64,000 bases of DNA from an uncultured Acidobacteriaceae bacterium (GTDB lineage Bacteria; Acidobacteriota; Terriglobia; Terriglobales; Acidobacteriaceae), in contig CAWHVT010000002.1 of NCBI GenBank assembly GCA_963832855.1, forward strand, positions 476,378 through 540,377, written 5' to 3'. Both the position numbers and the translations under genes were made by a program. Under the pieces are notes generated by a model, which did no database searches, was not told where the DNA came from, and saw only the letters and a program-made list of their open reading frames with translations. Shown here one piece after another: positions 15,159 through 37,885 of this stretch (position 1 is its first letter; every line of letters starts with the position of its first letter).

Positions 15159-15294
15159 CCCGTTGCCTTCGCCCGCTCCGCCTGCACCAAAAGAGTGATC
15201 CCCACCCCCCACCTTGGTCTGTTCGCCCCAGTTTTCAATCCACTATCATCTTTCATCAGGTCCACAGATTTCTTCCCAGGGAGAGGTTTTCGAA

Positions 15295-16881
15295 TTGCCA
15301 CATCGGCCACGCATTGCTTTTGCGCTCGCCGTCGGACTGGCCGCCATCTGCGCGCCCATCTTGGCCTCCATCTACCTCGCCTGGCACCAGAGTCTCGCCG
15401 CCCAAAAAGCCCTCAGCCTCGCCTACGCTCACGATTCTCTTCGCCGCGTTGAAGAAGCCGCCAGCCAGTTCGCCTTCGCCAAGCACCGCATCGACGCTGC
15501 AAACTTCGCTCCTTGCTCGCCCAACGAGATCGACCTGCTCCGCCAGATCGATCTCGGTTCCAGCTACATTCAGGCCGCCGGCCGCGCCTCCGGCAACACG
15601 CTTCTGTGCACCTCGCAGGGTGTCACCGCTCCGGTCTCTCTCGGCAAGCCAAGCCTCATCTCCTCCCGTGGCGTCGACGAATACTTCAACGTCAAGCTCT
15701 CGCCCCAGCAATGGCATCCGCTCGACGTCTTCTCCGCCGGCGGCTTCGCCATCATTGTCGACCCCAAGCTGCCCATCGACATTCCCACTGAAGGCTCCGA
15801 TGTCGAGCTCTCCGTCTTCGTCCCCTCAGCCCCCAACCGCGACCGCCTCGCCGTTGTCGGCAGCAGCTTCCAGCCTGCTTGGTTCCAGCCCATCGCACCT
15901 GGCTCCGAGGCCACCCTCCTCGATCACGGCTTTCTTGTCTCCCGGCTCCGCTCCGCCAAATGGGACCTCGCTGTTGTCGCGGCTGTCCCCGAGCGTTATG
16001 CCTTTCAGCAAGTCCGCCACTTCACTCTCATCTTCGCCCCCTTCGGCGTGCTCTGCGGAGTTCTCCTCGCCTGGGCGGTCAACTACCTCTGCCAGCTCAG
16101 CTCTTCATTTCCCACCATCCTTCGCCGTGCCCTCCGCCGCAAGGAATTCTACGTCGAGTACCAGCCCATCGTTGAGCTCGATTCGCGCCGCGTCATCGGC
16201 GCCGAGGCCCTCATTCGCTGGAAGAGTCCCCTCGCCAACATCCCGCCCGACCACTTCATCCCGCTCGCTGAAGATCGCGGCCTCATCCATCTCCTCACTA
16301 ACCAGGTCCTCGAAATCGTCACCCACGATCTGCCTCGAATCCTGGCCATCGATCCAGACTTCGAAGTCGCCATCAACATGTCGGCCGGCGATCTGCGCTC
16401 CGGCCGCACCCTCACGCAGCTCGATCAGTTGCTCCAGGCCACCGGCGCTATGCCCCACAACATCGGCATCGAGGCCACCGAGCGCGCCTTCTTCCACGAT
16501 TCCCAAACCGCTCAGCTCATCGCCACGCTCCGCACCAGGGGCTTCCACGTCTCCATAGACAACTTCGGCACCGGCTGTTCCTCGCTCGCCTGCCTGCAAT
16601 CTCTCTCGCTCGACACGCTCAAAATCGACAAGGCCTTCGTCGAAACCATCAACACCGACGGCGCAACCAGCCAGGTCGTCGTTCACATCATTGAGATGGC
16701 CCGCTCGCTCCACCTCCAAACTATCGCTGAAGGTGTCGAGACAGAAGCGCAGGCCCATTTCCTCCGCAGGCGCGGCGTCCGCTACGCCCAGGGATGGCTC
16801 TTCGGCAAATCCATGCCCATCGCTTCGCTCCTGAAGAAAATTCCAGCCAGCACAACCGATCCCGTCGCCGTTCGTGTCTGA
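15295..16881 (+). CDS. CSS-motif-type periplasmic sensor + EAL domain protein (c-di-GMP phosphodiesterase-like)
   Basis: TM-periplasmic (PCSP...LLCTS)-TM, then YQPIV, AEALIRW, DNFGTG, LKIDKAFV, AEGVET, QGWLF; TTG 15295 after GGAGAGG. Confidence 0.85.
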   Translation: MPHRPRIAFALAVGLAAICAPILASIYLAWHQSLAAQKALSLAYAHDSLRRVEEAASQFAFAKHRIDAANFAPCSPNEIDLLRQIDLGSSYIQAAGRASGNTLLCTSQGVTAPVSLGKPSLISSRGVDEYFNVKLSPQQWHPLDVFSAGGFAIIVDPKLPIDIPTEGSDVELSVFVPSAPNRDRLAVVGSSFQPAWFQPIAPGSEATLLDHGFLVSRLRSAKWDLAVVAAVPERYAFQQVRHFTLIFAPFGVLCGVLLAWAVNYLCQLSSSFPTILRRALRRKEFYVEYQPIVELDSRRVIGAEALIRWKSPLANIPPDHFIPLAEDRGLIHLLTNQVLEIVTHDLPRILAIDPDFEVAINMSAGDLRSGRTLTQLDQLLQATGAMPHNIGIEATERAFFHDSQTAQLIATLRTRGFHVSIDNFGTGCSSLACLQSLSLDTLKIDKAFVETINTDGATSQVVVHIIEMARSLHLQTIAEGVETEAQAHFLRRRGVRYAQGWLFGKSMPIASLLKKIPASTTDPVAVRV

Positions 16882-16962: not shown

Positions 16963-17097
16963 CTTGGGTTGGCGAGTGAGATACGGTCCACCCACCGAAT
17001 AAAGACCGCAGAACCCAGCCGGCGATATACTGGCGCCGCCGGGATAGCAATCCGGCTTCACGGCTTCCCAGGAACTGAAATCTCAAGGAGGTTTGCG

Positions 17098-17595
17098 ATG
17101 AGTACATTTCGTGCAGGACGGTTGTTGGTGCTCTCCACCGTGATCGCTGTGCTGCTGCCCGCAGTGCCGGCCTACGCCGCGTTCGATACATTCATCACGA
17201 TCACGGGCTCCAGGCAAGGACAGTTCAAGGGCGACGCGGGGTCCGATCAAATCCGGCTCGTCAGCGTCGTCCGCGACACCCCGATGGAAACTGCCATGCA
17301 CACCGGCAGGAGCACGCACTCCACCATCACCATCACCAAAGAGATCGATAAGGCATCGCCCAGGTTCGCCCAGGCGCTGAGCACCAACGAGGTCTTGAGC
17401 GAGGTGGTGATTAACTTTGAGGGAGCCTCCGGAGGCGCGAAGACGGCCCAGAAGATCGTGCTCACCAACGCCAAAATCATCAGCGTTCGCAAGGCGGGCG
17501 GCAGCGAGATGATCACGCTCGACTACCAGGCCATCGAGGTCACATGGACCGACGGCGGCAAGACCATGGCGGACAACTGGCAAACTCCAAGGTAG
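17098..17595 (+). CDS. hcp: Hcp (type VI secretion tube) family protein with an N-terminal Sec-type signal peptide; orphan
   Basis: FITITGSRQGQFKG, HSTITITKEIDKASP, IVLTNAKI, EMITLDYQAIEVTW...DNW; leader MSTFRAGRLLVLSTVIAVLLPAVPAYA; AAGGAGG RBS. Confidence 0.8.
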   Translation: MSTFRAGRLLVLSTVIAVLLPAVPAYAAFDTFITITGSRQGQFKGDAGSDQIRLVSVVRDTPMETAMHTGRSTHSTITITKEIDKASPRFAQALSTNEVLSEVVINFEGASGGAKTAQKIVLTNAKIISVRKAGGSEMITLDYQAIEVTWTDGGKTMADNWQTPR

Positions 17596-30434: not shown

Positions 30435-30453
30435 AACTGCCCCACAGAATGCC

Positions 30454-31188
30454 CTAGGACGCGTCGCCGGGGTCCGGGTGAGGGGTAACCCTGCCTGAAT
30501 CGCCGTCATTGCTGGGAGCAGGCAGCGCAGCGCTGGGAGCTTCGTTGTCAGCGCTGGTGACATTGGCAACCGGCAACTGAAGGCTGGGATCGAAAAAGGC
30601 GAGCTTGGCTTTAACTACCGGACTGATGTGCGCCCACTCGCGTGCGATGCATTCGGGGTGTTGCAGCAAATAAGATTCCGCGAAGTATCCGGCACCGTCG
30701 CTGGGAATGAAATCACAACGGGCCATGACTGCGGCCACTCCGTCCACAGGCGACTGTGTATCTTCGGTGTCGGTCTCAGAGTAGGTAAAACCAAAGAACC
30801 GTCCGCCCGGACGTGCGCCGTCGATTAAGTCTTTCAGGAAAGTTGCAGCGTCAGTGTCGCCAGTGGCGGCGCGTATGAATTGCGCTTCAATGGCTACTTC
30901 GTTCCAGCTTGCACCGGGTTTCAAACCTACTGCGATTGCAGCCGCATTCGGCGCACGCTGACCCGATCTGCGAATTGCGCACTTACGAAAACTGCGATCT
31001 TCGCGGACTTTTCCGCCCGGATTCGGAGAGCTGCCCGGTTGGAACTGGACTGGTGATGGATTGCTTGCGGAGTATGCTGTAGACGGCGGATTTTTCTTGC
31101 GTTTTACTGTGTCGAGCACAACGTGCTGCACGGATTTCTTTTTTGTCTTCTTTGTTGATTTCTTCGGTGCTGTTTTTTTCGTTGCCAT
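30454..31188 (-). CDS. DUF5681-like protein, putative terminase small subunit
   Basis: FQPGSSPNPGGK motif plus WNEVAIEAQFIRAATGDTDAATFLKDLIDG; Lys-rich N-tail; AAAGGAA RBS. Confidence 0.65.
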   Translation of the reverse strand: MATKKTAPKKSTKKTKKKSVQHVVLDTVKRKKNPPSTAYSASNPSPVQFQPGSSPNPGGKVREDRSFRKCAIRRSGQRAPNAAAIAVGLKPGASWNEVAIEAQFIRAATGDTDAATFLKDLIDGARPGGRFFGFTYSETDTEDTQSPVDGVAAVMARCDFIPSDGAGYFAESYLLQHPECIAREWAHISPVVKAKLAFFDPSLQLPVANVTSADNEAPSAALPAPSNDGDSGRVTPHPDPGDAS

Positions 31189-31214
31189 ACTGGTTCCTTT
31201 CGTTAGTTAAGTAA

Positions 31215-31241
31215 GGACTTCACTCAGCGTCAGTGAAATCC
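31215..31241 (-). terminator. Hairpin (possible attenuator) upstream of the TerS-like gene
   Basis: Minus strand GGAUUUCACU-7nt-AGUGAAGUCC with one U.G pair, followed by UUACUUAACU. Confidence 0.4.
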
Positions 31242-31242
31242 C

Positions 31243-31587
31243 TCACGGCATGAACCTTTCCATTCTCGTGCGTGCTCTGGCGCGCTCAGCCCAAAGCAAC
31301 ACCTGCGCTCTCTCTTGCTCCATCGCGCGCCGCGCCCGACACTCCTGATTCTGAAGGCTGCGTAGTGTCGCACTGGGAAATTCGCCATCGATATAAATGC
31401 CACTGCGAACGGCGAGCTTCGCGCGGCTCAGCACCAATGCGCAAGCGCGCCAGTAGCGATGACATGGAGGTTCAGGGAAAGGCGCATTCCAGCGGAGATG
31501 CCGCGCCCGTGGTCGCAGGTTTCCGCGCCGGTCGATCAATTGTGCGAACTGGAGCAATGCGGCGGTTTGTCTATCTTCAATCTTCAT
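31243..31587 (-). CDS. Hypothetical Arg-rich satellite protein (114 aa)
   Basis: GAGGTG RBS before ATG 31587; same strand as the operon. Confidence 0.55.
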   Translation of the reverse strand: MKIEDRQTAALLQFAQLIDRRGNLRPRARHLRWNAPFPEPPCHRYWRACALVLSRAKLAVRSGIYIDGEFPSATLRSLQNQECRARRAMEQERAQVLLWAERARARTRMERFMP

Positions 31588-31607
31588 AGTTCACCTCGAA
31601 AAGTGTT

Positions 31608-31797
31608 GTGCGGGCCGATGGCCTTGAAACACCGGCCCGCACGCGAGCAGCGCAACGTGAGAAGGGCAGGCACGTCGCGCTGCATGTCGAATCTTGCGCG
31701 GCGAGTGGATGAGACAAACACCCGCCGCGCTTTGTGACCGGGAGCAGGAGTATCCCCCGGTGTTCGCCCTCCGAGTGCCTGCCACACCCGGCGCGAA
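31608..31797 (-). ncRNA. Candidate structured RNA: five tandem hairpins
   Basis: Stems of 13, 13, 12, 8 and 8 bp; all six stem mismatches are A.C on plus and therefore G.U on minus. Confidence 0.55.
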
Positions 31798-31807
31798 TTC
31801 AAGATTG

Positions 31808-32317
31808 TTATTGTGGAGCAAACACGCCTCCCACGCGATCTACACCCGACGAATTCTGAAGTTGGTTGATAAAATCACTTTCCGCAAATTCCAACTGCTG
31901 TACGCGCTCCCTGATCCCGATGGCCTCGATCCGAAGCAGTTCGATATTTCCCAGCGTCTGCTTCGCCTTTTTCAACTCCTCCAGCCGCTCGTTGAGGGTG
32001 CGCACGCCGTCAAACCACTGCACGGCTTCTGGCTCATTCGGCAAAAAGTCGCAGACTGCCGGACGGCCAGCAGCATGGTAGCCTTGCGCCGCGATCACCG
32101 ACATCATATTTCTGTGGATGGCATCGAGTTCGGGTTGCGCGTTGAAAATCTTCTTGGCCAGCTTCTCAAACTCGCGCCGTTTGATTTTGAGTTCGCCACG
32201 CACGGCGACAAGGTTGGCAACGAGCTTGGTGCGGCGCTCCTTGCGCTCGGTGGCTTCGATCTCGGCAAGCTGCGCACGCAGTTCGTCGGCGCTAGGTTTT
32301 TTCTTTTTCGTGGTCAT
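31808..32317 (-). CDS. Hypothetical coiled-coil satellite protein (169 aa)
   Basis: AGAAGGGAG RBS; heptad-rich charged helices. Confidence 0.75.
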   Translation of the reverse strand: MTTKKKKPSADELRAQLAEIEATERKERRTKLVANLVAVRGELKIKRREFEKLAKKIFNAQPELDAIHRNMMSVIAAQGYHAAGRPAVCDFLPNEPEAVQWFDGVRTLNERLEELKKAKQTLGNIELLRIEAIGIRERVQQLEFAESDFINQLQNSSGVDRVGGVFAPQ

Positions 32318-32493
32318 GGTCTAGCTCCCTTCTTGGTTGTGTTGCGTTCATCGACTGGCTCGGCCTTCATCCACCAGCCGTCGATAGGTTGGCGCTGTGG
32401 CAGCACCGGTGGAGCAATGGGTACGCCGCTGTCGCCGTAGCGGACAAGACTCCAATAGACGGCATGCAGCCGGTTCAGAACGGCGGGCGTCAT
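32314..32493 (-). CDS. Small hypothetical protein (59 aa), absent from the ORF track
   Basis: MTPAVLNRLHAVYWSLVRYGDSGVPIAPPVLPQRQPIDGWWMKAEPVDERNTTKKGARP*; ATGA overlaps at both ends. Confidence 0.65.
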   Translation of the reverse strand: MTPAVLNRLHAVYWSLVRYGDSGVPIAPPVLPQRQPIDGWWMKAEPVDERNTTKKGARP

Positions 32494-32741
32494 CCTTTGG
32501 CCTCATCTTCCTGACCTTTGCCCAACGCCTCATCGTGGGCCAGAGCGTCGCTGGGTGAAGATGGAGCCTGTCGTGGAATCGAGGTGCGCGATTCCGTGCG
32601 CGTCGGAGTGCTGGTCACGTTCTCGAATGGATCGGTGTTATCGCGCGCCGGGGTTGGGTCGTCGAAATCCGGCGCACCGTTGATAAGCACGTCGCTGGGC
32701 GAGCCGCTGAATTTTCTGTTGTCCCATTTTTGTTCTGCCAT
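32490..32741 (-). CDS. Hypothetical acidic/Pro-rich protein (83 aa)
   Basis: AAGGAGA RBS; coupled to the downstream ORF. Confidence 0.6.
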   Translation of the reverse strand: MAEQKWDNRKFSGSPSDVLINGAPDFDDPTPARDNTDPFENVTSTPTRTESRTSIPRQAPSSPSDALAHDEALGKGQEDEAKG

Positions 32742-32773
32742 GATGATTCTCCTTGTAAGTTAGAAGTTGAGGT

Positions 32774-32968
32774 TTACGGCGTAGGAATTTTGCTTTCCGT
32801 GCCATGTAGAGTGCAACTCAAACTGGTGAAAATCAGACCGCCCACAGGTTTGTGTCTGCCAGTGCAAATGCATTCGCGGCGAACTAGAGGAAGAGTTTCC
32901 CGTGAGCGCTCCAACAATTCAGCTTTGCGCCTCCTGCCAACGCCGCAAATCCCGCTGTTACTTTTCAT
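32774..32968 (-). CDS. Possible small Cys-containing protein (64 aa)
   Basis: ATG 32968 after AGGGGAAGGA; same strand as the operon; competes with an antisense ORF. Confidence 0.35.
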   Translation of the reverse strand: MKSNSGICGVGRRRKAELLERSRETLPLVRRECICTGRHKPVGGLIFTSLSCTLHGTESKIPTP

Positions 32969-33286
32969 GCGATCCTTCCCCTTGGCTGTTTGGTTTCCGC
33001 GAAATCCACCGCAATTTCGCGCTCGAAAAAGAAAAATCATTGAAAGCGCGTGGCTTGCCCACCTGCGACTTCCTGCTTATGAAGCAGCATGGCTGAAAAA
33101 GGCACACGGGCCTGCGGGTTGAAGAGGTCCGCTGGCCCGTGTGGGCGAAGTGGCGAACCACTTTGCACGTGGCGCGTGGAGAGCGGGGACAAGACCACCC
33201 TCCACGTGTTGCGGCGCTGTAGAGGACGCCGCGCATCGGGGCAGACGGAGTGGAATGCCCCGAACTTGATACCGGGAGGGGGTATA

Positions 33287-33386
33287 ACACGCGACAAGTA
33301 CCCGATCTCTGTAAAACTGTCGTTTCTGTCGCGTGTCGTGTGTTGGGAACACGCGACAGTAACGACAGAAAAGACAACAACGACAG
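33287..33386. other. Putative replication origin (iterons)
   Basis: CTGTCGCGTGT/ACACGCGACAG and CTGTCGTT/AACGACAG inverted pairs plus extra copies, just downstream of the primase-helicase. Confidence 0.6.
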
Positions 33387-33427
33387 TAATGTCCATTTAT
33401 CAGTGATCGAGGAATTGTCGTGTGTTC

Positions 33428-35236
33428 TCACCGCTTTTCCTCCACTTTTTGTCCCGGTAGCGACCACTTCACAACCTTCCCCGGTCCCGGTTTATCGCGA
33501 TGCACACCGATCCGGTTGGCTGCGCGCTGCAACATGCGCAGCTCGTGATCGCCCGCTGCCAGCAGATACTCCAGTGTCCGGGGACCAGCGGCTAGTTGCT
33601 TCTTTAGGAACTCTCTTGCGCGTGTCACGCCTGTTTGCGCTTGGGTAGTTTTCTCAGGTGCCGTCAGATCACCCAGTGTGCACTTCGATTCACCCTTCCA
33701 GACCAGCTTGGCATTGTCGGCGTGCTTTTCCTTCACGTCTTCAATGGCGAAACGCAGCCCCGGCGCAGGCTTACCGATTTTGTTTTGTACGGTGAGCATG
33801 TGGCGATTATTCGGCTCGTCAGCACAGGTGCCGATTATGAACTCGATACGCACGCACGCGGAAAAGTCAATCGACCCTATGCCTCTGTGAATGGCCCTGC
33901 CTCCGCTGGCTTTGGAAAGGTGCCTGATGATGACAACTCCGATGTTGTACTTTTTTGCCAGCCGCACAACGTTGTCCATGAGCGGTCGCGTTTCACTGGC
34001 TTTGTGAAAATCGGCGCTGGAGCCAAAGTACGATTGCAAAGGATCGAAGACCACAAGATCGATTTTGTTTTTCTCAATGGCGCGCTCGACGAGTGTGAGA
34101 TCGGCGAACGAAATGCCTGTGCTATTGCCATCGGCGTTTTCCGCTCCTTCAACTACGGCGAAGTGCCGAAAGTCTCCACCAGCCAAACGAAATCGCGCAT
34201 GAAGCACATGCTCAGGGTCGTTTTCATTTGTCACATACAGCGTGCGAAGAACCGGGCACTTCTCGCCGGTGACAGGGACTCTTCCACATGAGAAATCCGC
34301 TGCCGCCTTCACAGTTACGAACGATTTTCCTTCGCCGGGATTGCCTGAGAGCAGAGTGATCTCTCCGCGCGCGATCCGTCCTCTCCAGATGTAGTCCACG
34401 GGCTTTTCCGTGACTTCTGTCAGCCAGCGCATAATCAACCTCCCTTCTCCTTGGGTTTTGCTCGCTTCAAACAACGGCGCTGCACTGCAAAGCGAGTCGA
34501 ACAGTTCCTTGCCGTGTGGTTGTGCCAGCACATCATCAAGGCCGGTCTTACCGTCAGCAGTGAGGCGTGGCAACGATATGATGTGCACCAGCCCGCCGCG
34601 CGCCGTGAGTAGGGCTGCGAGCTTCTCCTGCGCGCGCTGCACGTTCTTGTTTCCGCTGGCGTCGGCGTCGAAGGCCAGATAGACTGTGCGGTTCTTCCAT
34701 TTGATCTTTTGCAGCAAAGGCACAAGCTCAGAGCATTTGCTGGCAGATGCGAATCCGTTGAATACGCCGCCCAGCGAGATCACGATGATTCCGTGTTTGG
34801 CACCGGCTAGTGCACGCGGCTCGCCTTCGCTGAGGATGAGCGGAATTTTCACGTTGCCAAAAATCTCCGGCCACGGCAGGATCGATACACAATAAGGAAC
34901 AGACTCGGTGTTGCTTGATTGCAGGAACTTCACCTTTTCCCCTTTGATCGTGCGCTCAAAGCGGAGACGAAGCCTGCTGCCCGGTTGTAGCCTGCCGGTC
35001 AGCGGATCGTAGTTCCTGAAGTCGAGTCCTTCGCGCGTTTCATCAGTGCGTAAAATGACTCCACACGCTTTCGCGAGAGAGAGATCGCTTCCACGCTGGG
35101 AGAGATATTCTTCAGCCCACTCCTGCGTGGTTTGTTCATGCTGCGGCGTTGGTTTGGATTTTGCGGGAACGAGTCGCGGTTCACGCTTCTGTTTTTTCAG
35201 CGCAGCCGGTGCCTTGAACTTGAGTTTTTCGACCAT
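33428..35236 (-). CDS. Primase-helicase fusion (DUF3854-like Toprim + AAA_25/RecA-type ATPase)
   Basis: ILSEGEP, VYLAFDAD (DxD), Walker A GNPGEGKS, Walker B LVVFDPL, IIRHLSK. Confidence 0.85.
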   Translation of the reverse strand: MVEKLKFKAPAALKKQKREPRLVPAKSKPTPQHEQTTQEWAEEYLSQRGSDLSLAKACGVILRTDETREGLDFRNYDPLTGRLQPGSRLRLRFERTIKGEKVKFLQSSNTESVPYCVSILPWPEIFGNVKIPLILSEGEPRALAGAKHGIIVISLGGVFNGFASASKCSELVPLLQKIKWKNRTVYLAFDADASGNKNVQRAQEKLAALLTARGGLVHIISLPRLTADGKTGLDDVLAQPHGKELFDSLCSAAPLFEASKTQGEGRLIMRWLTEVTEKPVDYIWRGRIARGEITLLSGNPGEGKSFVTVKAAADFSCGRVPVTGEKCPVLRTLYVTNENDPEHVLHARFRLAGGDFRHFAVVEGAENADGNSTGISFADLTLVERAIEKNKIDLVVFDPLQSYFGSSADFHKASETRPLMDNVVRLAKKYNIGVVIIRHLSKASGGRAIHRGIGSIDFSACVRIEFIIGTCADEPNNRHMLTVQNKIGKPAPGLRFAIEDVKEKHADNAKLVWKGESKCTLGDLTAPEKTTQAQTGVTRAREFLKKQLAAGPRTLEYLLAAGDHELRMLQRAANRIGVHRDKPGPGKVVKWSLPGQKVEEKR

Positions 35237-35406
35237 GTCCGCTCCGTCAACCAAAATCTTTGTGCTCTAAAAGGCCGCTGTTGTTCGTGTGTTTTACGCG
35301 CCCATCCGCTGAACAAGCAGGCGTTCGCAGGTAGGCAGGTTGCACACTTTAAACGATCCCCCTGCGCGGACCGCGCCAACCGCGGCGAAAAATGCGGAAA
35401 TCGTGG

Positions 35407-35628
35407 TCACCGGCGCGCCTTCCGTGCGGGCACGGTCCCAGCATCGATCAACCTGTCGAGCACATCCTGAGGGATGCAGACACTACGCCCGATGTGGACG
35501 TGCTCAATCTGTCTCCGCCAAATCCACTGGCGCAACGTCGCGACCTTCACCGCGCCGCCCAGATATTCAGCCGCCTTAGGGATGCGAAACAGGCGGCGCT
35601 GAGTTCGAGTGTTTTGTTGGACTGCCAT
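35407..35628 (-). CDS. Excisionase/AlpA-like HTH protein
   Basis: LFRIPKAAEYLG...TLRQWIWRRQI...IGRSVCIP; AGGAGG RBS. Confidence 0.85.
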   Translation of the reverse strand: MAVQQNTRTQRRLFRIPKAAEYLGGAVKVATLRQWIWRRQIEHVHIGRSVCIPQDVLDRLIDAGTVPARKARR

Positions 35629-35724
35629 CGGAGTCCTCCTGTGTTTATTACCTCTCAGGCTCTCTCGCGTGTGTGACTTTTCTTTGTTAAACTATTTTTA
35701 GCTGTTTAGTGCTAACATCAATGT

Positions 35725-36414
35725 ATGGCGAGTCACGGCCCACTTCCCGTCTACTTCCTCGATGAAACAGCGCTGGTGCGAATGCGCGACTTCCTGAACG
35801 ATGGCAAATGCGGGCGGGAGACTATTGATGAAGGAGACCGGACCGAACTCCGCACACTGATTGACGATTGGCTGGGGGCCGGAAAGAACTGGCGGCGATT
35901 CATCGCTCGCAGGCTGAAGGCGCATAGGTCTGTGGGCTTCACAAGTGGGACGTTCAATATCCCATCGCACACGGCGCGTCCTGTTCCTGTTCACTACCCC
36001 GCACCGAAGGCAACGTATGCGGAAGGTGTATTCCTTCAATTCATCCTTCATCCTGAACGCGAACAACTGGACGGCCCATGCCGCCGCGTGAATTGCGGGC
36101 GCTACTTTCTGCGCGAGACCGCACATCCGAAGGTGTACTGCTCACGAGCTTGCGCCACTAAGGACTCTGCGGTTTTCGCAATGCGCGAGAAACGAGAGGA
36201 TGAATTCCGTGAACTGAAAAAGAGAGTGTTGAGCGCCATTGCAAGGTACACGGACAATCGGCGGCAAGGCGACTGGCGCATCTATGTTGAAACCGAAACG
36301 GGCGTCACAGTGCGCACCCTGAACGGCTGGGTCAAAAGGAGATTCATCAAAGCTCCGCCCACCGCCCGGAGACGCGTAAACCAACCACCAAGAAAACCGA
36401 CGAGAAGGAGATGA
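35725..36414 (+). CDS. CGNR-type zinc-finger protein, putative element regulator
   Basis: CRRVNCGRYF...YCSRAC; basic C-terminal helices; divergent from the xis-like gene. Confidence 0.7.
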   Translation: MASHGPLPVYFLDETALVRMRDFLNDGKCGRETIDEGDRTELRTLIDDWLGAGKNWRRFIARRLKAHRSVGFTSGTFNIPSHTARPVPVHYPAPKATYAEGVFLQFILHPEREQLDGPCRRVNCGRYFLRETAHPKVYCSRACATKDSAVFAMREKREDEFRELKKRVLSAIARYTDNRRQGDWRIYVETETGVTVRTLNGWVKRRFIKAPPTARRRVNQPPRKPTRRR

Positions 36415-36418
36415 ACCG

Positions 36419-37702
36419 ATGGGACTCTATCGACAATCAGGGAGCAAAATCTTCGCGATAGATTTTGTCTTTCATGGCAGGCGCATCCGCCGAACTACGG
36501 GGCTAACCCGCAAGCAGGATGCGCGTGAATTCTTCGACAACTTCAAAGAGGACCTCAAGAAAAAGGCAGCGGGCATTCAAAAAAAGAAACAGCCTGATTT
36601 CTTCAAAGATGCCGCGGCAAAGTGGCAGGAACACAAACTCGCAAAGGGCAAATGGAAAAGCGCCAAGACGCGAGACATTGCCCGTGTTGCTCTGAATCAC
36701 ATCTTGCCCCGCCTAGGCGACCTGCTCCTAATTGAGGTTGAGTCTAATCACATTACTGGGTATCAGGAGTTTCGCAAACAGCAAGGTGCAAGTGACCGAA
36801 CCATCGATATTGAAGTCTCTGTGGTTCGGCAAGTCTTGCAGAAATACGGTCGCTGGGAAGCGTTGAAAGAGGATGTGGATTCAAAGTTGGATGAAGAGAA
36901 GGAAGTAGGCCGAGTGCTCACTGCCGAACAGCAGCGCATCCTACTCACTGAATGCTCTCGGTCCGCATCGCGCGGCCTGTTGCCTTTCGTTGTGCTCGCA
37001 ATTGAGTGCGGCGCTCGTTATGGTGTCATCCGCAAACTGCAATGGGGCGGGGTGGATTTTGTGAACCGCACCGTCCGATTCGGCAAAGACAAAACGAAAT
37101 CAGGCACAGGTCGAACCATTCCACTGAATCAACGGGCCGTGTCAGCTTTGACCTTTTGGGCGGAGCAGTTCCCCGACCGCGAGGCGGAGCACTATGTCTT
37201 TCCATCGGAGAAGTACGGCCTCCACGGGACCAAAGGCGAATTTGGCGGTCGTGTGGAGGTCTTCGAATGCGACCCGAAAAAGCCGGTTGGTTCCATTTCC
37301 TCCGCGTGGGAAACCGCTCGCGCAGCGACGCGGCATCATTGCCCGGAGTGCGATGGAATACTGATTGATTGTGCGAAACCGGCAAGCGGGTACGTCTGCG
37401 ACTCTTGCCGTTTCGAGACCGCGGAACTTCCCGAAGGGGTAAGTCGCTTCCGGTTCCACGATCTCCGCCACAGTTGTGTTACGCGTCTAGTCCAAGGCGG
37501 AACACCCGTCGTCAAGATCGCCAAGCTCGTGGGTTGGAGCAATTCGACAGCGATAAAGATGGCGCTGCGCTACTCCCATCCTTCAACCGAAGACTTGCGG
37601 GCCGATGTGGAAGCAGCGAGCCTGCCAGAACCCCCGGAGTCCAATCCAGTTCCGCGGTTTTCACCGCGGTCGGATGATCCGGGCAACGTCAACGTAAACT
37701 AA
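36419..37702 (+). CDS. int: Tyrosine recombinase/integrase
   Basis: ECGARYG (R), KTK (K), HDLRH, LVGW, LRYSH (Y); ends next to att. Confidence 0.95.
   Translation: MGLYRQSGSKIFAIDFVFHGRRIRRTTGLTRKQDAREFFDNFKEDLKKKAAGIQKKKQPDFFKDAAAKWQEHKLAKGKWKSAKTRDIARVALNHILPRLGDLLLIEVESNHITGYQEFRKQQGASDRTIDIEVSVVRQVLQKYGRWEALKEDVDSKLDEEKEVGRVLTAEQQRILLTECSRSASRGLLPFVVLAIECGARYGVIRKLQWGGVDFVNRTVRFGKDKTKSGTGRTIPLNQRAVSALTFWAEQFPDREAEHYVFPSEKYGLHGTKGEFGGRVEVFECDPKKPVGSISSAWETARAATRHHCPECDGILIDCAKPASGYVCDSCRFETAELPEGVSRFRFHDLRHSCVTRLVQGGTPVVKIAKLVGWSNSTAIKMALRYSHPSTEDLRADVEAASLPEPPESNPVPRFSPRSDDPGNVNVN
37650..37670. repeat. Probable integrase arm-type site, right arm
   Basis: Identical 21-mer to 30149-30169. 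Confidence 0.75.
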
Positions 37703-37717
37703 ATTATTGATTTCAAA
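37700..37717 (-). promoter_or_regulatory. IHF consensus site beside att
   Basis: Minus strand AATCAA-TAAT-TTA matches WATCAANNNNTTR. Confidence 0.6.
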
Positions 37718-37794
37718 TGGTGGGCAGTGAGGGACTCGAACCCCCGACTTCCTGCTTGTAAGGCAGGCGCTCTAACCAACTGAGCTAACCGCCC
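37718..37794 (-). tRNA. tRNA-Val (anticodon TAC), CCA encoded
   Basis: GGGCGGT/ACTGCCC acceptor stem, CCTGC-CTTACAA-GCAGG anticodon arm, TTCGAGT T-loop. Confidence 0.98.
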
Positions 37795-37885
37795 ACGCGG
37801 CCGCGAATCGATGCGTCCTACCGACATGATACCAGCGCGTTCATGATGCGGAAGACGCGGTACAGCCAATTGATAAACTCACCTG

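Follow-up and report, generated by a model that had tools for sequence, protein, structure and literature searches.

A conserved orphan Hcp-family protein of Acidobacteriaceae with a predicted signal peptide and a probable role outside type VI secretion

The Hcp (TssD) tube of a type VI secretion system (T6SS) is polymerised in the cytoplasm on a baseplate, and the T6SS Hcp has no signal peptide. The protein is a textbook case of secretion without one, and an hcp gene is routinely read as a sign of a T6SS. Here we analyse an hcp gene in a stretch of 64,000 nucleotides (64 kb; hereafter the window) from an uncultured Acidobacteriaceae bacterium (GenBank assembly GCA_963832855.1, contig CAWHVT010000002.1). 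Its product belongs to the Hcp family by sequence and fold but, unlike the T6SS proteins, carries a conserved leader of the cleavable type (predicted). Our best explanation, which we hold to be likely, is a Sec-exported Hcp-fold protein that acts independently of a T6SS and probably forms a ring in the cell envelope.

The Hcp domain and its leader

The features of the gene itself are the following.

17098..17595, plus strand: gene for an Hcp precursor with a predicted signal peptide, 165 amino acids (aa), stop codon TAG at 17593-17595 included; from the open reading frame (ORF), PF05638 and TIGR03344
17085..17091, plus strand: Shine-Dalgarno (SD) sequence AAGGAGG, 6 nucleotides (nt) 5' of the ATG; read from the sequence
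17098..17178, plus strand: predicted Sec/signal peptidase I (SPase I) signal peptide, residues 1-27; from hydropathy, charge and conservation
17179..17592, plus strand: mature Hcp domain, 138 aa, no cysteine; from Pfam/NCBIfam coverage, Foldseek and alignment region lengths

The Hcp motifs that a first-pass annotation, made from the letters of the window, had read along the whole mature chain are borne out by two profile hidden Markov models, both of which match over their full length and above their cut-offs. Residues 32-150 cover the whole of the Pfam profile PF05638 (T6SS_HCP; positions 1-129 of 129, E = 3.1e-17, 63.5 bits against a cut-off of 23.5), and residues 28-163 cover positions 2-166 of 167 in the NCBIfam profile TIGR03344 (TssD; 67 bits, cut-off 58.9). 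Direct sequence matches to solved Hcps are weak, with 1e-6 at best. A single-chain AlphaFold2 model built from 46 homologues (predicted local distance difference test, pLDDT, 78; predicted template modelling score, pTM, 0.70) shows the beta-sandwich of Hcp proteins flanked by one helix; at the N-terminus residues 6-19 are modelled as a helix with low confidence, and residues 65-71 form a disordered loop. When this model was compared with the PDB by Foldseek, the top matches were 3he1, 8z7k, 4hkh and 1y12 (E from 1e-8 to 1e-6, target TM 0.6-0.75), and the top 50 were all Hcp structures or Hcp fusion constructs with a probability of 1.00. A database entry 99% identical to the window protein (P0001) is named 'type VI secretion system tube protein TssD' (Terracidiphilus sp.) by NCBI. 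The assignment to the Hcp/TssD family is solid.

The leader reads MSTFRAGR / LLVLSTVIAVLL / PAVPAYA and is followed by AFDTF. Judged by the rules for Sec/SPase I substrates and by conservation across homologues, it has the tripartite layout of a signal peptide that obeys the AxA rule: an n-region M1-R8 with a charge of +2, an h-region L9-L20 of 12 residues with Kyte-Doolittle 9-mer means of 2.7-3.0, and a c-region P21-A27 with prolines at -7 and -4 and A-Y-A at -3 to -1. Cleavage is predicted after A25-Y-A27, leaving A28 as the first residue. A search of 5.8 billion proteins returned 248 relatives, and the 120 listed ones (63-99% identical, nearly all 161-166 aa) without exception have the leader or, in the N-terminally truncated entries P0083 and P0110, its cleavage region. 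All 120 of these homologues have Ala at both -1 and +1; at -3, 111 have Ala and 8 have Val, and 115 have Pro at -4. L19 and L20 are each kept in 119, and -2 takes seven different residues. In a more distant set of 171 relatives with a leader, 148 have A, G or S at -1 and 139 have Ala at +1, and the +1 Ala agrees with the 'MA' start found in 62 of 67 leaderless forms. The fixed small residues at -3 and -1 together with the free -2 have the appearance of a site cut by SPase I, and the leader as a whole seems to be free in its exact residues and fixed in its pattern, as is usual for signal peptides. We therefore infer from the sequence that this Hcp is exported and cleaved. Two other classes of signal were rejected: the leader has no twin-arginine motif, which argues against a Tat signal, and a lipoprotein is excluded by the lack of a lipobox, by the Ala at +1 and by the lack of cysteine in the whole protein.

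A related possibility is an uncleaved signal-anchor, in which the hydrophobic N-terminus would stay in the inner membrane and tether the Hcp domain on its periplasmic face. The hydrophobic span R8-F29 has about 20 residues, enough for a membrane helix, and about 13 of 150 distant relatives have a longer extension in which a hydrophobic segment is followed by a linker. The h-region proper, however, is only 12 residues long, and the invariant Ala at -1, the near-invariant Ala or Val at -3, the Pro at -4 and the variable -2 form the pattern of a processed site. We regard a signal-anchor as decidedly unlikely.

The ATG in front of the leader is the secure start of the gene, because near the boundary of the Hcp domain the ORF offers no start codon (TTC stands at codon 29, and Met next occurs at residue 63) and because caAGGAGGttt and the ATG are invariant in 27 species-level genomes. 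The same facts rule out a mis-called start with the true one at the mature domain. The basic n-region, the hydrophobic h-region and the A-Y-A of the 27-aa leader, as well as the strong ribosome-binding site (RBS), had all been noticed in the first-pass annotation, and the pattern of the leader and the RBS are conserved across the homologues compared here. A longer reading from TTG 16969 also exists, but its additional stretch shows no conservation at the protein level and shares its DNA with a conserved non-coding module. In one cluster at 90% identity (P0121) start calls differ among gene callers: members are given as 166 aa or as 148 aa, the shorter calls omitting most of the leader. Hence, surveys of Hcp signal peptides that take database starts as they stand will miss some cases.

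An orphan gene of Acidobacteriaceae

The gene stands alone, with spacers of 216 nt upstream and 507 nt downstream, between a gene with CSS-motif and EAL domains and ispG. To look for T6SS genes we took 13 core proteins from a real cluster in one of the fetched loci (L008), namely TssA, B, C, E, F, G, K, L and M, TagF, ClpV in two parts, and VgrG. By tblastn at E <= 1e-3 these gave no match in the window, as the first-pass annotation had concluded for tss and vgrG genes (PAAR was not searched for separately), and none in the 51 fetched loci other than L008. The window gene is an orphan hcp. Its close homologues are likewise orphans that keep the leader, and not leaderless members of T6SS clusters. 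Pfam scans identify the window's ten largest ORFs as housekeeping genes, which encode an outer-membrane barrel, MutS, an amine oxidase, a primase-helicase, an inositol-phosphate synthase, HemA, a solute-binding protein, a radical-SAM enzyme, an efflux outer-membrane protein and the EAL protein. This view of genomic context reaches over 64 kb of the genome and up to 20 kb per relative.

The distribution of the family was scanned in one genome per species (GTDB) with a narrower family alignment (A3), which reaches only Acidobacteriaceae. The family occurs in 41 species-level genomes, all of them Acidobacteriaceae metagenome-assembled genomes (MAGs) from peat, bog, palsa and soil that are labelled Terracidiphilus or Granulicella or are unnamed. 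The count leaves out a 42nd locus, in a Candidatus Kapaibacterium MAG, whose match is weak and partial. Orthologues with at least 70% identity lie between a GNAT acetyltransferase gene and ispG, with variable inserts, and more distant members of the family occupy other positions without a common neighbour. Clustering of the neighbouring ORFs over 26 non-syntenic loci gave small synteny groups of 5-6 loci and no conserved partner gene. Toxin or immunity genes as a conserved neighbourhood were found in none of the loci compared, and PADLOC gave no match.

Selection on the gene was compared with that on its well-aligned neighbours by means of uncorrected p-distances. The ratio of nonsynonymous to synonymous differences (pN/pS) is 0.52 for the Hcp gene and 0.10-0.35 for GNAT, ispG, orf_19432, the MFS and the ABC gene. 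Since the gene is retained in 41 species with a ratio below 1, we count this as evidence of selection. Its pS is 0.295, against 0.36-0.52 for ispG, ABC and MFS and 0.278 for GNAT; the low pS and the invariant strong RBS are hints that the gene may be highly expressed, through codon bias.

Could the gene be an ordinary orphan hcp that feeds a T6SS elsewhere, its leader being an annotation artefact or a harmless extension? The databases do say TssD, orphan hcp genes are common, and T6SSs occur in some Acidobacteriota. Yet the domain boundary offers no start codon, the RBS and the ATG that precede the leader are invariant, and the leader recurs in all 120 listed homologues, the two truncated entries included. 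In addition, no vgrG, effector or tss gene lies near the gene in about 50 loci, the loops and a hairpin of the protein are shortened (see below), and a Sec leader would move the protein away from the cytoplasmic site of tube assembly. We consider this explanation very unlikely.

The other known relatives to be weighed are the tail-tube proteins of prophages, tailocins and extracellular contractile injection systems (eCIS). Hcp shares its fold with phage tail-tube proteins, and a search of PHROGs gave one weak match (phrog_27303, E = 7.5e-5, function not assigned). Against a tail-tube protein speak the flanks, which hold no phage or eCIS genes, the lack of sheath, baseplate and spike genes in the window and in the related loci, and the position between GNAT and ispG in many species; furthermore, phage and eCIS tube proteins have no signal peptide and are assembled within the cytoplasm, and the sole mobile element of the window is about 13 kb away at a tRNA-Val gene. 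An origin of this kind is very unlikely, to the point that we give it almost no weight.

Further features on the upstream side of the gene are listed here.

15214-16881, just upstream of the Hcp gene: CSS-motif/EAL gene (phosphodiesterase-type for cyclic di-GMP), a variable insert
16966..17084, plus strand: conserved upstream module; from the alignment of 27 loci in differing chromosomal contexts
16968-16986, plus strand: GTTGGCGAGTGAGATACGG box (or GTTGnCGAnTnAGATnCGG box); from the upstream alignment
17021-17037, plus strand: near-palindrome GGCGA-TATACTG-GCGCC with a -10-like TATACT; from the upstream alignment
about 17038-17056, plus strand: GC-rich hairpin with a variable loop; RNAalifold prediction
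17062-17068, plus strand: GGCTTCC, part of a duplicated CGGCTTC motif, which can pair with the SD sequence; from RNAalifold

The CSS-motif/EAL insert is present between GNAT and Hcp in only some of the orthologous loci (55-89% identity). The DNA immediately in front of the gene is different: about 130 nt (16966-17097) stay conserved across 27 Acidobacteriaceae species, including those with other chromosomal surroundings, and the GTTGnCGAnTnAGATnCGG box is among the elements that travel with the gene. RNAalifold predicts the hairpin and a 7-pair helix that masks the SD sequence; this helix has no covariation because both of its sides are invariant. In four loci (L026, L029, L032 and L036) the hairpin loop takes extra small hairpins with compensatory changes. 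Scans for Rfam families, promoters (sigma-70 consensus) and terminators around the gene gave no match. The module could be a translational control element, and because this conserved DNA travels with it, the gene looks like a self-contained, regulated, single-gene unit.

About 13 kb from the Hcp gene and unrelated to it, a probable integrated mobile element (about 30450-37800) adjoins the tRNA-Val gene (37718-37794, minus strand). It contains a tyrosine integrase (36419-37702), a DUF3854/Toprim/AAA_25 primase-helicase (33428-35254) and DUF5681 and DUF6076 proteins.

Leader-bearing Hcps in other phyla

When 1.84 billion cluster representatives were searched exhaustively with phmmer, 1436 matched at E <= 1e-3, and 163 of these at E <= 1e-10. 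Among the best 150, 92 have a hydrophobic leader of at most 45 aa, 13 have a longer extension that includes a hydrophobic segment, and 12 are leaderless; the rest are fragments, multi-domain proteins or forms with non-hydrophobic extensions. A profile search returned 2521 proteins at E <= 1e-10. Some of these have a leader and are 177-205 aa long; the others lack one, measure 162 aa and begin MALNAYLKLKGQKQG. Where a leader is present, its typical end is ...A-x-A with ALNAYLK right behind it, so that after cleavage the chain would begin at the position which the alignment matches to Ala2 of the 'MA' proteins without a leader. Leader-bearing Hcps fall into at least 105 clusters at 50% identity and at least three phyla, including Myxococcota and Bacteroidota; named members come from a Nannocystaceae MAG (P0310, Myxococcota) and from Lewinella and Flavilitoribacter (P0175, P0390 and P0391, Bacteroidota). 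Where the sources give a name, it is T6SS tube protein TssD, secreted Hcp or Hcp family effector. The window protein represents one lineage of a large multi-phylum set and is not one odd gene.

Genomic context separates the two kinds cleanly. All seven distant leader-bearing Hcps that we examined are orphans among unrelated genes (L004, L006, L007, L009, L055, L056 and L057), and the leaderless relatives (three of three) lie between TssC and TssE in full T6SS clusters.

In a neighbour-joining (NJ) tree of 252 sequences the leader trait changes at least 14 times, a figure from a rough tree made by a quick method on a short protein. The 185 leader-bearing and 67 leaderless forms in this tree do not reflect a frequency among all Hcps, as the queries contained the leader and favoured leader-bearing matches. 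For 50 of the 185 leader-bearing forms there is a leaderless relative with at least 60% identity over the mature domain, and some are 70-78% identical to leaderless Hcps. The window clade and its nearest leaderless relative share 42%; this clade appears to be an older, more diverged, separate lineage that is found only in Acidobacteriaceae.

Several of the relatives show unusual arrangements. Tandem leader-bearing paralogues occur in two Acidobacteriaceae lineages, one of them labelled Granulicella (L044, 7428-7892 and 8003-8602; L046, 9980-10468 and 10565-11167). The second copy has 199-200 aa, its own predicted signal peptide and a long insertion rich in Ser, Thr, Ala and Gly, and the pair might form a hetero-oligomer. 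Other proteins contain three to seven Hcp domains per chain: P0142 (2164 aa), P0138 (1230), P0234 (881), P0268 (646), P0241 (538) and P0202 (1145). P0142 has six complete Hcp domains and a bacterial Ig-like domain, P0202 a C-terminal Hint domain; six domains in a single chain could make a covalent pseudo-hexameric ring. In L007 (4257-8408) the leader-bearing Hcp P0140 lies 2-6 kb downstream of a gene for a 727-aa Colicin-DNase/WHH polymorphic toxin, which is accompanied by genes for SUKH immunity proteins; the arrangement was seen once and may be due to chance.

The repeated appearance or loss of leaders near T6SS Hcps raises the possibility of an exported decoy or sink: a periplasmic ring that keeps the effector-binding lumen would capture Hcp-borne effectors injected by other cells and would give broad protection without an immunity gene. 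This would be a specific version of the favoured explanation, the exported envelope ring. It would fit the 14 or more switches and the close leaderless relatives of 50 of the 185 forms (up to 78%), as well as the N-terminus after cleavage, which would match the Ala2 start of leaderless Hcps. The amino-acid sequence also changes faster than that of the neighbours (pN/pS 0.52 against 0.10-0.35), as might suit a gene in conflict, and one relative lies near the toxin and SUKH genes of L007. Several observations count against a decoy. Hcp-effector binding is specific to the cognate Hcp; identity between the window clade and the leaderless relative nearest to it is only 42%; no conserved toxin or immunity neighbourhood exists in the loci compared, and PADLOC was negative; and the quick tree of a short protein was drawn from a sample biased to leader-bearing sequences. 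We judge a decoy role unlikely for the window protein. A wider form of the hypothesis holds that signal-peptide Hcps in general are widespread Sec-exported rings of multiple origin, derived repeatedly from T6SS tube proteins and serving as periplasmic effector decoys or sinks. We consider this broader version quite unlikely; if it were true, the class would amount to an innate anti-T6SS defence that needs no immunity gene, with the Acidobacteriaceae protein as an old and fixed representative.

Shortened loops, possible roles and known systems

Between conserved anchor residues, four regions of the window protein are shorter than in cluster-encoded relatives: the b1-b2 turn (12 residues against 16), the extended loop (14 against 18), the F107-K115 loop (9 against 11) and the LTNA-to-YQxIE hairpin (19 against 31). 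From the strand order of Hcp1 and the nanotubes stabilised by G90C/R157C disulfides, the tip of this hairpin presumably lies on the face that contacts the next ring. If this placement is right, part of the ring-stacking surface is lost, which would fit rings rather than long tubes. The full-length loops and hairpin of cluster-encoded Hcps are absent from the window protein, which may affect its function.

The mechanism that we propose would begin with the N-terminal signal peptide, which would send the unfolded precursor through SecYEG. SPase I would cut after A25-Y-A27 and release a mature protein of 138 aa that starts with Ala, and this Ala would align with Ala2 of the cytoplasmic Hcps, which have a Met-Ala start with Ala first if the initiator Met is removed. 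The protein would fold once it has left the cytoplasm, most likely into the hexameric ring that typifies the family. It would work alone, as a one-gene module equipped with a strong RBS and a conserved upstream module of its own. Rather than a long stacked tube we favour a ring that serves as a protein-binding or scaffold module of the periplasm or envelope, because the hairpin that we place on the stacking face has 19 residues in place of 31. Once exported, an Hcp cannot serve as a tube subunit, because the T6SS tube is polymerised in the cytoplasm on its baseplate; moreover, the window protein has neither the leaderless N-terminus nor the T6SS, vgrG or effector context of a functional tube subunit (for PAAR see the search above).

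These parts of the explanation differ in strength. That the protein is exported and independent of the T6SS tube appears, from its sequence and conservation, highly probable; that it forms a ring is somewhat better than an even guess. The roles that we considered are a periplasmic protein-binding ring (a holdase or sink), an effector decoy, a released structural protein and a membrane-tethered form, and taken singly each of them is improbable. The first-pass suggestion of an Hcp repurposed outside the T6SS gains support from all this, with export, ring or tube, and role at the conditional strength given here.

Several points weigh against our explanation. A T6SS elsewhere in the genome is possible, as some Acidobacteriota have one. 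The AlphaFold2 model is a single chain, which bears on ring formation, and the position of the hairpin on the stacking face is presumed and does not come from coordinates. The hairpin has exactly 31 residues in 57 of 67 leaderless forms (the median is 24 in the 185 leader-bearing ones), a figure that does not stand for 57 independent observations, the leaderless set being dominated by one clade. Crude pN/pS values are 0.93 for the leader and 0.54 for the mature part, and the former is no codon-level proof of purifying selection. Finally, no RNA runs containing the gene are listed, though DNA runs hold it.

One of the roles concerns the world outside the cell. After export the protein could be released, by a type II system, by vesicles or by lysis, and build extracellular tubes, fibres, a matrix or a surface layer. 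The leader evidence applies equally to this case; the strong invariant RBS and the low pS (0.295) fit an abundant structural protein; the chains with 3-7 Hcp domains, and above all P0142 with its bacterial Ig-like domain, look like the design of a surface protein; and tandem pairs of leader-bearing paralogues also occur. On the other hand, no secretion-system gene and no sortase-like or anchoring signal lies beside the gene in any of the contexts, and the shortened hairpin, if placed correctly, argues against tight stacking of rings. We think a released form unlikely as well.

With regard to the exported envelope ring, the sequence points to a conserved, apparently functional Hcp that would be directed to Sec export. 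The design recurs in at least three phyla and more than 100 clusters at 50% identity, under the label of T6SS tube protein TssD or Hcp wherever names are given. If export is true, genome surveys that count hcp genes overcount T6SS components, and the Hcp ring becomes a module of the envelope or the extracellular space, with possible uses in T6SS defence, protein holding or surface structure. The abundant and little-studied Acidobacteriaceae of peat and soil would gain a conserved envelope protein. A literature search of incomplete coverage found no published description of an Hcp with a signal peptide, nor of the leader-bearing Hcps of other phyla; as this is absence of evidence only, we claim no priority.

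How does the window protein compare with the systems that are known? The T6SS Hcps used for comparison are Hcp1 (1Y12) and Hcp3 (3HE1) of P. aeruginosa, Hcp1 of B. pseudomallei (8Z7K) and Hcp1 of enteroaggregative Escherichia coli (EAEC; 4HKH). With the T6SS Hcp/TssD proteins it shares the full-length domain, the fold and the motifs G(K/R)RxH-x-I-TITKExDxASP, LTNA, YQxIE and DDW, and it is 16-26% identical to the solved structures and about 42% to the nearest leaderless relative found. It differs from them in the conserved signal peptide of the cleavable type (predicted), in a mature chain of 138 aa against about 160, and in the lack of a T6SS, vgrG or effector locus nearby. Like orphan hcp genes and hcp-vgrG-PAAR islands it is annotated hcp and lies away from a main cluster. 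Known orphan hcp genes, however, are leaderless, usually have vgrG, PAAR, effector and immunity genes as neighbours and serve a T6SS encoded at another site, whereas the window gene is monocistronic among housekeeping genes and has a Sec leader (predicted). The tube proteins of phages and eCIS (lambda gpV, T4 gp19, Afp1/Pvc1 types) are established as distant relatives in fold; unlike them, the window protein has no family match beyond the one weak PHROG match and no phage or eCIS context. Closest in design are the leader-bearing Hcps of other phyla (P0310, P0175/P0390/P0391, P0281 and P0373), which likewise have an AxA-ending leader before the Hcp N-terminus, orphan genes and a shortened hairpin. 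They are 30-40% identical to the window protein and stand closer than it does to cluster-encoded Hcps, with identities of up to 78%.

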